The position numbers were made by a program, and so were the translations under genes. This document shows positions 56,087 through 61,550 of a stretch of 64,000 nt of DNA, piece by piece. Source of the DNA: Escherichia coli (GTDB lineage Bacteria > Pseudomonadota > Gammaproteobacteria > Enterobacterales > Enterobacteriaceae); the NCBI RefSeq assembly GCF_003334765.1, contig NZ_QOWT01000013.1; one strand, written 5' to 3'. Each line of letters opens with the position of its first letter. The first letter of the stretch is position 1. The notes beneath the pieces are model-generated. The model was not told the origin of the DNA. It did not search any database and was given only the letters and a program-made list of their open reading frames with translations.

Positions 56087-56129
56087 AGCGCCCCGTTGCC
56101 ACCCATGAGGTTTGGTAGCAAAACAATTT

Positions 56130-56217
56130 GGTGAGGTGTCCGAGTGGCTGAAGGAGCACGCCTGGAAAGTGTGTATACGGCAACGTATCGGGGGTTCGAA
56201 TCCCCCCCTCACCGCCA
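56130..56217 (+). tRNA. serW: tRNA-Ser (anticodon GGA)
   Basis: 88-nt sequence GGTGAGGTGTCCGAGTGGCTGAAGGAGCACGCCTGGAAAGTGTG...GGTTCGAATCCCCCCCTCACCGCCA: acceptor stem, long variable arm, T-loop GGTTCGAATCC and encoded CCA; anticodon loop CUGGAAA. Confidence 0.95.
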
Positions 56218-56367
56218 GATTATAAGCGTATATTATTGTTTGACATGCGCTTTTTTATTCTCCCTTCCAGACAGTATGCCACCGGGTATGCCATCTGAAA
56301 CCGGTTTATATAAGCCGCGATCACATCTTATCGGACTATTTCCGATCTTTGAGCATACCGGGCAAAG

Positions 56368-57213
56368 CTATACTGCCAGCATGCCAGGATAGTGTCTGGC
56401 AATAATATCATTAAGCCTGTCAACCAGTTCTGGTTTTCTGAACGTGATATGCGCGGAGCCCTTCTTAAAGTATCTGATGCTGAACATCTCATCTTCATAG
56501 CACGCTTTACCCTGAACAGACCGGATATGGTCATCCAGATGAATGATGATATTTTCCCGGTTGTCGGGGACTGGTTTGCCACTGAACAGATGCAGCATTC
56601 TTTCCAGGTCGGCAAGTCGGTCGGTCTGTTGTCCGCTGTTCAGATGAATCCCCCACCGGTCCCACCTCACCAGATTGTTGACGATAATTTTACTGCCAAA
56701 TTTACAGGGTGAGTTGGTTTTGTAATTCCAGCTCAGCACTCTGAAGACGTTGATCACTCCTCGCTCAAACACGTCATCCTTATTCTGGTGCAGTTGCTCA
56801 AATGTGCTCCAAATGTTCGCTTCACTGATTTCCGGAAAGTTATCGTACTCCAGTGAGCGGTACCATGTATCACGGGCCTGCGCATCCATTAATGACAGCA
56901 TCCCGGAACGTTGCATCAGGTCACGCCAGATTTCGCGATCGAGATTGCGGGTGATGGCTTTCATTGCGGTTTCCGGTTTCTCCATGAGCCAGCAGCCGCA
57001 GCGAAAATCCTGTTTCATGGCCCAGTCCCGGGCGGTTTTACCGCCAATGCTTTCCGTCAGTACCGAGATTTCAGCCAGTTGCCGGATAAGTGTGTCGATT
57101 TGCAGCAGCGCACTCTTTCGTACAGCCAGAATGTGGCGGATACTGGTTGAGCAGATAACGTCCGTATGTCCGTTGACCAGTTCCGGGCGGGAGATTGTGA
57201 TATCTGACATCAT
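56368..57213 (-). CDS. Island-encoded hypothetical protein, resembling DUF4942-family proteins found at the toxin-proximal end of CP4-type islands
   Basis: 281-aa ORF with protein-like composition. Family assignment is from memory of annotations, not from a search. Confidence 0.65.
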   Translation of the reverse strand: MMSDITISRPELVNGHTDVICSTSIRHILAVRKSALLQIDTLIRQLAEISVLTESIGGKTARDWAMKQDFRCGCWLMEKPETAMKAITRNLDREIWRDLMQRSGMLSLMDAQARDTWYRSLEYDNFPEISEANIWSTFEQLHQNKDDVFERGVINVFRVLSWNYKTNSPCKFGSKIIVNNLVRWDRWGIHLNSGQQTDRLADLERMLHLFSGKPVPDNRENIIIHLDDHIRSVQGKACYEDEMFSIRYFKKGSAHITFRKPELVDRLNDIIARHYPGMLAV

Positions 57214-57294
57214 CGTTTTTCCTTTTGGTTTATAAACGAAAACGCCAGCCGTATTCAGGCTGGCGTCAGTGGAATGAAGTCTGGTGAGTAAGAC

Positions 57295-57492
57295 TCACCT
57301 GTTCTGTTGCAGAAGCTGCTGTTGGCGCAGGGTACGGATATCTTCCCTGGCCTGTTCAATGCAGGGCAGCAGTGCTGCTGAATCCGTTTTATCCTCATCG
57401 GTGTCGAAGATAATCCCTGATTCGCAGTCAATATTGTCCTGCATCCACGCAATCAGAATATCCAGCGCCGTTTCTGTGGTTAATGATTTCAT
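57295..57492 (-). CDS. YeeW-like small protein
   Basis: 65-aa segment MKSLTTETALDILIAWMQDNIDCESGIIFDTDEDKTDSAALLPCIEQAREDIRTLRQQQLLQQNR inside ORF 57295..57723; matches the YeeW-type protein found downstream of CbtA-type toxins. Confidence 0.7.
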   Translation of the reverse strand: MKSLTTETALDILIAWMQDNIDCESGIIFDTDEDKTDSAALLPCIEQAREDIRTLRQQQLLQQNR

Positions 57493-57508
57493 GTTGTGAA
57501 TTTCCGGG

Positions 57509-57760
57509 TTACCAGTCGAAAGTGGGGAACCCCGGCAGACATTCTGCGCCGGCGTCCAGATGAATGAGACTGACGCCATAACGCCGGGTGAGAGTGACGA
57601 CCAGACGACGGAACGTTCTTGACAGGCCCAGGCGTTTAAGCCGCAGAACCGGGTACGACCATGCATCGGTACGTAACAGATACCAGTCGCGGGCTTTTTC
57701 CCGTACGGTGGAGGATAGCTCATGCAGTGTATACACGGTGGTGGTGATAATTCTGCTCAT
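57509..57760 (-). CDS. 83-aa hypothetical protein in the slot where CP4 islands carry the CbeA/CbtA-type antitoxin-toxin pair; weak resemblance to the CbtA/YkfI toxin C-terminus
   Basis: ATG start, TAA stop; contains YLLRTD (compare YALVRTD / YELVRID in CbtA-family toxins); too short for either partner. Confidence 0.4.
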   Translation of the reverse strand: MSRIITTTVYTLHELSSTVREKARDWYLLRTDAWSYPVLRLKRLGLSRTFRRLVVTLTRRYGVSLIHLDAGAECLPGFPTFDW

Positions 57761-57778
57761 CTGAATGCCCTTACTGAC

Positions 57779-58000
57779 TCAGTTCAGGGTGACGTTCATC
57801 AGCCGGACATACGGGCCAAAACTGTCCTTACGGCGTTCAGCAAACACGGCCAGCACACCGGGAATATCCTGCACTTCACGACCGGTATACGTCTCAGCAC
57901 TGCCGTGCCAGCGGTACTTACCGGTGCAGAACGGAAATAGACGGGGTGCAGGATGCTGTTGGTGAATACGCATGGCTTCACCACGGGTGATAATTTTCAT
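57779..58000 (-). CDS. DUF987-family protein (YeeT/YpjJ-like)
   Basis: 73-aa ORF MKIITRGEAMRIHQQHPAPRLFPFCTGKYRWHGSAETYTGREVQDIPGVLAVFAERRKDSFGPYVRLMNVTLN. Confidence 0.85.
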   Translation of the reverse strand: MKIITRGEAMRIHQQHPAPRLFPFCTGKYRWHGSAETYTGREVQDIPGVLAVFAERRKDSFGPYVRLMNVTLN

Positions 58001-58062
58001 AATGGGATACCTCTGAAGACAGAAGATAAAAGTGAAAACAGGTGTGATGTGGTTGTGACGGG

Positions 58063-58539
58063 TTAAAGCAGACCATGTTCGGCAAAGGAGAAAACCTGGT
58101 TGCCACCGACTATCAGATGGTCCGGCACCCGGATATCCACCAGGCCCAGTGCCTGTACCAGACGTTCGGTGATAAGCCGGTCTGCCTTACTGGGTGTGAC
58201 TTCACCGGACGGGTGATTGTGTGCCAGTACCACGGCAGCGGCATTGTGGTACAGGGCGCGTTTAATCACTTCCCGGGGATGGACTTCCGTGCGGTTGATG
58301 GTGCCGGTGAAGAGGGTTTCACCGGCAATCAGCTGATTCTGGTTGTTCAGATACAGCACCCGGAATTCTTCACGCTCCAGTCCCGCCATGTTCAGAATCA
58401 GCCATTCCCGTGCTGCACGGGTGGAGGTGAAGGCCACGCCGGGTTCATGAAGATGGCGGTCCAGGGTTTTCAGGGCCCGTTGAATGAGGCTGCGCTCGCC
58501 GGGCGTCATCTCTCCGGGCAGAAAGGAAAGTTGTTGCAT
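58063..58539 (-). CDS. RadC-like JAB/MPN-domain protein (YeeS/YfjY/YkfG-like)
   Basis: ORF 58063..58554; probable start MQQLSFLPGEMTPGERSLIQRAL...; JAMM motif HNHPSGEVTPSKAD. Confidence 0.88.
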   Translation of the reverse strand: MQQLSFLPGEMTPGERSLIQRALKTLDRHLHEPGVAFTSTRAAREWLILNMAGLEREEFRVLYLNNQNQLIAGETLFTGTINRTEVHPREVIKRALYHNAAAVVLAHNHPSGEVTPSKADRLITERLVQALGLVDIRVPDHLIVGGNQVFSFAEHGLL

Positions 58540-58554
58540 TGTCCCTGCCTCCAT

Positions 58555-59028
58555 TCAGTCGATGATGCGCATAATGGCGCTGCATTCCGGATGCTGCAGG
58601 GCGTAATCCCGCAGCCGGTAATAATGAACCGTCATGGCATAATTCTCTGTACGACAGGCGTGATGGCTGTACGCCATCAGACAGGCGGCAATGCCGGCGG
58701 CTTCCGGGCTCATTTCAGCGCGGTTACCGTTCATGACGTTAAACAGCACCCATGTTTCGTCATCATCGTCATCCGGTTCGGGTGCCATAAATGCGCCACC
58801 GTTGTTCAGGGTGTACAGATTCCAGATACCACCGCAGTAGTCTTCGCACAGACGGTCCATCCAGCCGAAGACACGGGGCTCCAGGGTCACCCACTGTGGA
58901 ATGAGGCCAAAGTGCTGCGGCCAGAAGCTGATGCGCTGTTCATCAGGGACGAGGGTGGCAACCAGTTGTTGCAGGTCAGTCTCCGGTGCACAGGCCGAAG
59001 AGGTGGTGTTCTGAGACAATGTTTTCAT
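58555..59028 (-). CDS. Antirestriction protein (YfjX/YafX/KlcA-like)
   Basis: 157-aa segment starting MKTLSQNTTSSACAPETDLQQLVATLVPDEQRISFWPQHFGLIPQWVTLEP... inside ORF 58555..59409; the upstream in-frame extension is not supported by homology. Confidence 0.85.
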   Translation of the reverse strand: MKTLSQNTTSSACAPETDLQQLVATLVPDEQRISFWPQHFGLIPQWVTLEPRVFGWMDRLCEDYCGGIWNLYTLNNGGAFMAPEPDDDDDETWVLFNVMNGNRAEMSPEAAGIAACLMAYSHHACRTENYAMTVHYYRLRDYALQHPECSAIMRIID

Positions 59029-59369
59029 GTATGAAATCCTTGTAATGTGAATAAATGAGAGGGAGTAAAGGTCGGGAGCTGGCAACATCACGTTCATCAC
59101 TGACCGTGATGACCCGGTAATATCAGGGATGAATGATATTCGGCTGAAATTCCGGACAGCCGTACGCGTAACCGTTCCGGTCACAGACGGATGGCCAGAT
59201 GCCATTGCCTGTATACTCAGTCTGCACAGACTGATTTCTCCGGGACGGTAAAACAGACGGGTACACCAGGCGCACAGGTCATCATCAGAAATGGAACGAC
59301 ACCCCGGCAGCGCCTCCGGGGCGTCGGGTGATTCTGGTGCCTGAATCACGCCTTCAGGGACATGCTGCA

Positions 59370-60188
59370 TCAGCGCAGGCTCTCCAGCAGCATTTCTGCC
59401 ATTACCCACAATGCGCGGTTGAGCTTAATATCGGTGTCGATGTTGTGAATGGCACGGGTGTGGATACGTTTTCCTTTTGCACTGCGGCCGGAAATCCCGC
59501 CTTTCAGCATATTCTCCTGGATGGTCTGATAAGTACTCCACAGGTCCTTACCGTAATCCTCCCGGCGTCGTGGCGTCAGAATGTCGGCGGTGGTGACGGG
59601 CCGATGTTCGTCACCATAACGGTAAGTCAGTGCCGCCTGTGCCAGCTCCTGGCGTTCCGGTGGCGGCAGGACCAGCGACTGCATGGCATCACGCTTCTCC
59701 TCTATCCGGTCAAACACGCCCACCACCTCGTAAGCCCCTTCGATAACTTTCTCCACTACATTTCCCCGGTGTGGAACACGCACTTCCCCCAGAGACTGGC
59801 CACAGACGCACCCGTTCTGGCAGACGAACCTGAAGTAACCCGGCAGCATCTGGTAGCTGGAGGTACCGTCATGAGAGTTGAGCAGAATAATTTCAGGGAC
59901 ATGTTCTCCGTTTATCTCTCCGGCCCGCCGCAGACGCAGCATGTGTTTTGTGTATCCCCGGCGGCCCGGGTCGCGCACGCGGGTCTGGCAGGCGAAGAAT
60001 GGCTGAAAACCTTCCTGCTGCAGGCTTTCCAGTACGGTGATGGTGGGAATGTACGCATATCGTTTACTGCGGGAAGTATGCCGGTCTTCACCGAAAATAC
60101 TGGGAACATAGTGCATCAGTTCTTCGTGTGTCAGCGGACGGTCACGGCGTATCTGGTTCGTATAACCAAAACGACTGGCTAGTCGCAT
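59370..60188 (-). CDS. DUF932-family protein (YfjQ/YafZ-like)
   Basis: 272-aa ORF MRLASRFGYTNQIRRDRPLTHEELMHYVPSIFGEDRHTSRSKRYAYIPT... Confidence 0.8.
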   Translation of the reverse strand: MRLASRFGYTNQIRRDRPLTHEELMHYVPSIFGEDRHTSRSKRYAYIPTITVLESLQQEGFQPFFACQTRVRDPGRRGYTKHMLRLRRAGEINGEHVPEIILLNSHDGTSSYQMLPGYFRFVCQNGCVCGQSLGEVRVPHRGNVVEKVIEGAYEVVGVFDRIEEKRDAMQSLVLPPPERQELAQAALTYRYGDEHRPVTTADILTPRRREDYGKDLWSTYQTIQENMLKGGISGRSAKGKRIHTRAIHNIDTDIKLNRALWVMAEMLLESLR

Positions 60189-60305
60189 AATTTGCTCCTT
60201 ATCGGTGGTTAAGATTTACTGGTGTAATAAATGAAAAAGCCACGTCTCCCGGAGAAGACGCGGCCTGACAGATGAAATGAATGACGTTTATTGTCTGAGA
60301 AGCCC

Positions 60306-60530
60306 TTAACTGGCGAGCCGCGTATTAAGCTGTGTTCCGGTATCGGGCTCAAAATTCCGGCAGCACCAGCGCAACTGACCTCCAGCATTACGGATAACCA
60401 GCCGGAAATGTGTTCCCAGGTCATCTTCCGTAAACACATTGCTGTAAGTTGTTGTGACGGCAACCACCTGTTCGCATGAGAAAGGGCCTTCGGGAAATAA
60501 GAGTAATGTACAGCCCTCATGTATTTTCAC
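60306..60530 (-). CDS. Hypothetical small protein (74 aa, GTG start)
   Basis: Only protein-like ORF in the 60189-60625 gap; no clear Shine-Dalgarno; overlapped by a 103-aa ORF in another frame with less protein-like composition. Confidence 0.3.
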
Positions 60531-60625
60531 CTGAAAATAAAAGTCGCTGTAATCATGGCAGGGCCGTATTTATTTTTGATATTAATAAATTAATAACGCG
60601 AAAATGAACCGCATAACTTACTCCT

Positions 60626-61108
60626 TTAATTTGTTTTGTTTACGTAGTCCTTGACCAGGTACGCGAATTCGTGAACGCCAATTTCACCAAACCAAATCAG
60701 GTAACCAGGGTCGATGTTGTAATAGTAACCAACGACTTTATGTGTTTTTGGGTTATAGAGTGTTATGATAAAGTTCCACCCGCAAGCGTGAGCTTTACAA
60801 CCACCACCTTCTACCCAGGTCGTTCCGTTAATGTTTACAGGATATGCACCACCGCCAGGACCATCCATATAGCCGTCTTTACCGAACATCCCGTCCAGTC
60901 CGACGGGATTTAGTGTTTTGTCGATAGCTACTCTGTAGGTAGCGTCACCTTCGTATAACTCGTACGTTGTTGGACATGCACCAGGCTGGCCAGACCAGGC
61001 TTTTGAGTCGCATTTAAGGGTCTGATTTACAGTGGCGGCGTTTGTGTCAGGACTTACACCAATAAACAGGAAAACCAGAAAGAACATCAGAGTATGTAAA
61101 CGTTTCAT
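60626..61108 (-). CDS. Exported Ivy-family-like protein (putative lysozyme-inhibitor paralog)
   Basis: 160-aa ORF with signal peptide (MKRLHTLMFFLVFLFIGVSPDTNA), good RBS (AAGAAGGAA) upstream, and a CKAHACG motif aligning with the Ivy CKPHDCG loop; downstream segment ...KTHKVVGYYYNID resembles Ivy ...KSNQMTGLFSTID. Confidence 0.6.
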   Translation of the reverse strand: MKRLHTLMFFLVFLFIGVSPDTNAATVNQTLKCDSKAWSGQPGACPTTYELYEGDATYRVAIDKTLNPVGLDGMFGKDGYMDGPGGGAYPVNINGTTWVEGGGCKAHACGWNFIITLYNPKTHKVVGYYYNIDPGYLIWFGEIGVHEFAYLVKDYVNKTN

Positions 61109-61550
61109 TATAAATTCCTTCTTAGGTTATTTAGCACTGCGATTTAAAGTAATACGGCCGATTAACTCAGTGCTATGAAAGAAGTCCACAGCGGTATAAT
61201 TACCGACCGCTAATGGATATTGCCGGACATTACCTTCGCTTGCCCACAGACAATATCATTGAGTCGTTGATAAACATACGTGTCGGGATCGGCAATAATC
61301 AGCCCTGCACAATTGTCATCATGCATTAAACGATAAATTTCCAATTTACTGAAATTTCGCATTAGTTCAGGGACTTCATCAGGATTGATAATGGATGAAT
61401 ATAGAGCCGGGTTGTAATAGTGAATATCCGGCTCGCCGAAAGTATAAGTGTGCTGATACCAACAATACAGACAATAGCGATGGTATAAAGTATCAAGTGC
61501 TTTTTAAAATAGACTGGAAACCAGATCCCCCTTTTTACTTACCTGTGTTA

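Follow-up and report, generated by a model that had tools for sequence, protein, structure and literature searches.

The type IV toxin-antitoxin module CbeA/CbtA (YeeU/YeeV), with its paralogues YafW/YkfI and YfjZ/YpjF, fills one particular slot in the K-12 island CP4-44 and in its intact siblings. Here we describe the equivalent slot of a tRNA-Ser genomic island in Escherichia coli contig NZ_QOWT01000013.1 (assembly GCF_003334765.1), from which this module is wholly absent. The stretch of DNA that we analyzed is 64,000 nt long and is referred to below as the window. In it, 286 bp separate the DUF987 gene from the next gene, and reading the sequence alongside the list of open reading frames (ORFs) reveals a single minus-strand ORF of 83 amino acids (aa) within this interval. 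A first-pass annotation of the DNA had already placed one 83-aa ORF where the toxin-antitoxin pair should be, and this holds: tblastn searches of all 64 kb with K-12 and closest-relative antitoxin and toxin queries detected neither a CbtA nor a CbeA homologue (best E 0.08). We have little doubt that the ORF arose as an in-frame scar when ~1.76 kb were deleted from the island. It is an ordinary remnant, and neither a toxin, an antitoxin nor a new module.

For comparison we used three intact relatives of the island, all located at serX: NZ_CP025892 (L001), NZ_CP116411 (L012) and NZ_CP035884 (L013), the last being the closest. Their genes run in the order DUF932, antirestriction, JAB/RadC, DUF987 and a 214-227-aa gene, followed by a YeeU-family antitoxin, a CbtA-family toxin, DUF5983 (162 aa), DUF957 (65 aa), DUF4942 and the tRNA-Ser gene. 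The 214-227-aa gene (products WP_000086768.1 and WP_021522037.1) is present in many islands between DUF987 and the antitoxin gene (L001 2151-2834; L012 5301-5945; L013 5301-5944, where it is a pseudogene). Its product has no match in Pfam, NCBIfam, PADLOC or the PDB and matches only phrog_5162 (function unknown), at E 8e-36 for the full-length protein; one RefSeq record labels it 'antitoxin of toxin-antitoxin stability system'. K-12 CP4-44 lacks this gene, retaining ~25 nt of its start after yeeT, and slot content therefore varies among sibling islands. DUF5983 (Aec77) is encoded directly upstream of DUF957, and its full-length members carry an N-terminal domain (PF25638) and a C-terminal domain (PF19419).

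The 83-aa ORF combines a piece of each of these two genes. Residues 27-83 are identical to residues 106-162 of the L013 DUF5983 protein at 54 of 57 positions (95%, E 1e-40), while residues 1-27 are identical to the 214-aa protein of L012 at 24 of 27 positions (89%, E 2e-13). Because both segments match island proteins in this way, the frame is not a chance ORF. The only match in a Pfam scan was DUF5983_C (PF19419), covering model positions 33-90 of 90 (E 4.5e-9); NCBIfam, PHROGs and PADLOC returned nothing for the ORF. NCBIfam also holds no family for its small neighbours, and PADLOC matched neither of the two parental proteins, nor DUF957 or DUF4942.

Though the first-pass annotation had allowed that the ORF might prove a complete member of a known family, it is a fragment fusion that falls outside each of those considered (CbtA, CbeA and complete DUF5983). 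Like DUF5983 it lies directly upstream of DUF957, across a 16-nt spacer, but cbtA is gone from upstream, the N-terminal domain PF25638 is absent, and the PF19419 domain is incomplete: its first ~40 residues are missing, and a foreign N terminus of 26 aa stands in front of what is left. Relative to the 214-227-aa protein, the ORF has the same start codon, the same ribosome-binding site and the same position 18 nt after DUF987, its direct upstream neighbour, but it keeps only 26 of the 214-227 residues. The match of a full-length relative to the ~200-residue phrog_5162 profile spans residues 2-211, whereas the ORF shares residues 1-27 only. It has no match to the CbtA_toxin profile (PF06755), expected over ~110-125 aa, and no YeeU/CbeA gene directly upstream, and comparison with CbeA/YeeU itself gave no BLASTP alignment at E values up to 100 and no Pfam match.

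The position of the deletion could be read directly from the alignment with intact islands. Window positions 62679 down to 57681 align collinearly with L013 (98.6% over 5 kb), and collinearity resumes from 57682 to 56123 (99.1% over 1.56 kb), leaving L013 positions 5380-7140 (1761 bp) without a counterpart; the breakpoint relative to L001 and L012 is the same. In a base-by-base three-way alignment, the window switches from one parental sequence to the other on a shared TA. With a slash at the breakpoint, the left parent reads ...GCGACTGGTA/CCGTCAG and the right parent ...GCAGCGGCTA/TCTGTTACG, and the window reads GCGACTGGTATCTGTTACG. The fusion is in frame and joins codon 26/27 of the 214-227-aa gene to codon 105/106 of DUF5983. 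Its ATG is that of the 214-227-aa gene, and a Shine-Dalgarno-like AAGGG 7 nt upstream is inherited along with it. What the window lacks is the remainder of the 214-aa gene, the complete genes for the YeeU/CbeA-family antitoxin and the CbtA-family toxin, and DUF5983 codons 1-105. No residue of either the antitoxin or the toxin gene is left. The first-pass annotation had offered three readings of the ORF, as a deletion-derived fusion, an orphan or divergent toxin, or a different small module. The first names the right kind of event with the wrong implied partners, the true ones being the 214-227-aa gene and DUF5983, and the other two find no support in the Pfam, BLASTP and PADLOC results.

Together, these findings strongly suggest how the ORF arose. 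A single illegitimate-recombination event at the 2-nt TA microhomology, in a CP4-44-like island at a tRNA-Ser gene, would have removed ~1.76 kb, from codon 27 of the 214-227-aa gene through codon 105 of DUF5983. The antitoxin and toxin genes would have been lost together in one step, a viable way to shed a toxin-antitoxin module because the toxin is never left without its antitoxin. The two ends would then have happened to join in frame, giving an ORF that takes its start codon and ribosome-binding site from the upstream gene and its stop codon from DUF5983, and that sits in the operon between DUF987 and DUF957.

Some observations weigh against this account, or against the view that the scar is a mere remnant. 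No exact parental island turned up: among intact relatives the best is 98.6-99.1% identical, and its own 214-aa gene is a pseudogene. In-frame joining is a one-in-three chance, which neither supports nor excludes selection for the product. Furthermore, in many database ORFs all that is left of DUF5983 is its last 50-60 aa, preceded by an unrelated N terminus (P0178, P0182, P0184, P0189, P0190, P0200 and P0204), and the recurrence of such C-terminal fragments could hint that this segment is preferentially retained. The leaders of these ORFs include IS110-like and Ag43-like sequences as well as one CbtA(1-83)::DUF5983(109-162) fusion, and their breakpoints gather at DUF5983 residues 101-114, as if there were a recombination hot spot near codons 100-115. 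Both the recurrence of the fragments and the clustering of their breakpoints probably reflect a clustering bias, or ascertainment, since a library clustered at 50% identity favours short fragments as separate clusters.

Two alternatives to a deletion scar concern the nature of the ORF and the quality of the assembly. An orphan or highly divergent CbtA-like toxin, working without a cognate antitoxin, has in its favour only the string YLLRTD, which the first-pass annotation took as at best weak similarity to CbtA. The resemblance is to CbtA residues 70-76 (YALVRTD), through the short pattern Y(A/L)L(V/L)RTD, and a single pairwise BLASTP comparison with K-12 CbtA gives 8/35 identities at E 0.23, which is not significant. 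The motif belongs to the 57 aa that match DUF5983 residues 106-162 at 95% identity and is thus native DUF5983 sequence. Pfam likewise assigns DUF5983_C and no CbtA_toxin domain, NCBIfam and PADLOC are empty, and the halves of the ORF trace to two parental genes, neither of which is cbtA. At the level of sequence this reading is already refuted, and we give it almost no credence. An assembly or sequencing artefact, in the form of a collapsed repeat or a frameshift masking two normal genes, would be conceivable because sibling islands are repeated within genomes and can confuse short-read assemblies. However, we examined eight further places, in independent assemblies with contigs of 209-242 kb (L004-L011), and all 8/8 have the identical junction, with the same surrounding genes and a gapless alignment across it; between the junction region and the tRNA gene, seven of them do not differ from the window at all. 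Both flanks continue unbroken into unique chromosomal DNA, and what is missing is 1761 bp rather than one base. The exact 83-aa protein is moreover on record from 176 contigs and listed in 295 index blocks of the collection. The sequencing frameshift that the first-pass annotation had envisaged as restoring two genes is accordingly excluded, and an artefact of any sort is extremely improbable.

We next consider what the product of the scar might do. The 83-aa protein is probably transcribed and translated, since its ribosome-binding site and operon context are kept. Its domain content was judged from an alignment of 31 diverse DUF5983 homologues, including stand-alone C-domain versions of ~100 aa. 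Five positions are invariant in this alignment (H74, D79, G105, S126 and W162), of which the 83-aa ORF has lost the first three and kept S126 and W162. The near-invariant S71 and W98 are absent as well, as is the conserved STAHIT...D motif. AlphaFold2, run on the same alignment, predicts the C-terminal domain of full-length DUF5983 (residues 65-162, ~98 residues) at a predicted local distance difference test score (pLDDT) above 90, with seven elements: strand 67-71, helix 77-87, strand 99-101, strand 105-109, helix 116-123, helix 127-140 and strand 144-148. The scar lacks the first three of these (two strands and one helix) and would keep one strand-helix-helix-strand half of the domain. The product would probably neither fold nor act as DUF5983 does; most likely it is inert, with no function of its own.

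A chimera with a new function would bind the partner of full-length DUF5983 or modulate the CbtA/CbeA paralogues of sibling islands. In its favour, the ORF is in frame with its Shine-Dalgarno sequence and operon context kept, DUF5983 is consistently encoded beside cbtA, and the C-terminal fragments described above recur in databases. Partners in trans probably exist, as E. coli genomes with a match to this region have a median of four such places; of 5,426 complete genomes, 4,910 have a match. We regard such a function as a long shot. The more specific idea that the chimera is made, keeps a binding surface of the C-terminal half of DUF5983, and acts in trans on sibling CbtA/CbeA/DUF5983 modules as a dominant-negative or decoy is marginally less probable again.

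The chimera itself is already known to databases, where the exact protein is recorded as 'hypothetical protein [Escherichia coli]'; in the literature library searched, no paper reports this particular deletion. Clustering at 90% identity groups the protein with just one other sequence, which differs by 1 residue, and megablast of the region found the contiguous arrangement of the window in none of the 5,426 complete genomes. The 3′ part alone, from window position 57682 downwards, is found at 99.3% in many complete genomes under DUF5983 and DUF957 annotations, and full-length DUF5983, clustered at the same 90% threshold, falls into more than 1,000 groups. Because the chimera is near-monomorphic and rare, while full-length DUF5983 and the region are widespread, the chimera is the derived state. 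The identical junction and near-single sequence point to one recent event.

The deleted island, with the identical junction and ~99.8% identity over window positions 56123-63760, occurs in two chromosomal contexts. In the window and in L005 and L006 it lies at serW (infA-aat-cydC), whereas in L004 and L007-L011 it lies at serX (ghrA-ycdX-csg). Likeness between the window and the serX-borne islands ends at 56122/56123, a few bases past the tRNA gene. Either the island lacking the toxin-antitoxin pair inserted at both of two identical tRNA-Ser genes, or it was copied from one to the other. The features of the slot and its surroundings are collected in Table 1.

Table 1. Features in and around the former toxin-antitoxin slot, in window coordinates
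Feature	Position	Strand	Evidence
RadC/JAB (YeeS-like) gene, intact	58063..58539	-	TIGR00608 at 149 bits, above cutoff; PF04002
DUF987 (YeeT-like) gene, intact	57779..58000	-	PF06174 on the identical gene in L004-L011; RefSeq name of the exact protein
18-nt spacer following the DUF987 stop codon, carrying the AAGGG	57761..57778	-	Sequence reading; same element in L001
83-aa chimeric ORF, in-frame deletion scar (very probable)	57509..57760	-	ORF list; PF19419 match; exact protein on record
5′ segment, codons 1-26, from the start of the 214-227-aa gene	57683..57760	-	Collinear with L001 2151-2230 and with L013 up to 5379
Deletion junction, 2-nt microhomology TA in the Tyr27 codon	57681..57682	-	Window aligned base by base with the left and right parents
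3′ segment, codons 27-83 and stop, from the last 57 codons (106-162) of DUF5983	57509..57682	-	99.4% to L001 4001-4174; 99.1% to L013 from 7141
65-aa DUF957 (Aec78) gene, intact	57295..57492	-	Name of the exact protein; 98.5% identical to L013 DUF957
Terminator-like hairpin 3′ of DUF957	57241..57267	-	Consensus scan only
DUF4942 gene, last in the island	56368..57210	-	PF13708 on the same gene in L004-L011; RefSeq annotation of relatives
tRNA-Ser(GGA), serW position, island boundary and attachment site	56130..56217	+	ARAGORN; neighbours infA-aat-cydC

The comparison also corrects the map of the slot downstream of the ORF. The first-pass annotation called the 65-aa gene 'YeeW-like', a name that does not survive: its product gives no BLASTP alignment to K-12 YeeW, and RefSeq names it DUF957 domain-containing protein. 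K-12 YeeW (64 aa), encoded by a gene that overlaps the end of cbtA, aligns instead to DUF5983 residues 5-64 (58% identity, E 8e-22). 'YeeW-like' therefore describes the DUF5983 N terminus, the very part deleted here, and K-12 YeeW is a truncated N-terminal piece of the DUF5983 family. Despite its RefSeq name, the 65-aa protein has no match in current Pfam-A. A neighbour of DUF5983 with the AntiFam entry ANF00264 has been argued to be a real dimeric protein (bioRxiv 10.64898/2026.06.09.728211), and ANF00264 is probably this 65-aa gene. In the window, no stop codon interrupts the DUF957 frame for 88 codons before its ATG, and the frame overlaps the 83-aa ORF. A 142-aa ORF results (57295..57723, minus strand), considered as a programmed frameshift or an extended DUF957 and rejected as chance: in L001 and L013 the frame is shut 3 codons 5′ of the ATG.

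For annotation, these data argue that the ORF be labelled neither a hypothetical protein nor a candidate toxin but a gene remnant, namely a DUF5983 C-terminal fragment behind a foreign leader, and that the slot be read with YeeW as the DUF5983 N terminus and the 65-aa gene as DUF957. Beyond annotation the importance is small. The locus would illustrate cleanly how one microhomology-mediated deletion, spanning both genes, can strip an island of its type IV toxin-antitoxin pair in a single step. The island without the pair persists in many isolates and occurs at two tRNA-Ser sites; its presence at both serW and serX would show persistence, and perhaps spread, without an addiction module.

Other islands of this family have lost the pair or its neighbours differently. 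In NZ_CP115351 (L002), which carries several pseudogenes and an IS21 insertion, the pair is missing from the same slot but with other breakpoints: DUF987 is followed by a nearly full-length DUF5983 of 144 aa, and no chimera is formed. This is an independent loss of the toxin-antitoxin pair. L012 has a frameshifted YeeU antitoxin gene (5995-6370) beside an intact CbtA toxin gene, as well as a frameshifted DUF4942 gene (7584-8427). Decay in this island family has taken many independent routes; deletion scars are commonplace in CP4-like islands, and nothing here is new in kind.

A further difference among the deleted islands lies in the DUF932 gene. Between 59742 and 59874, the window carries 11 substitutions in 133 bp relative to all sibling copies spanning this part of the gene (L004-L009), with 0-8 further differences from these copies in the rest of the island. 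This cluster resembles a short tract acquired by gene conversion from a paralogous island.
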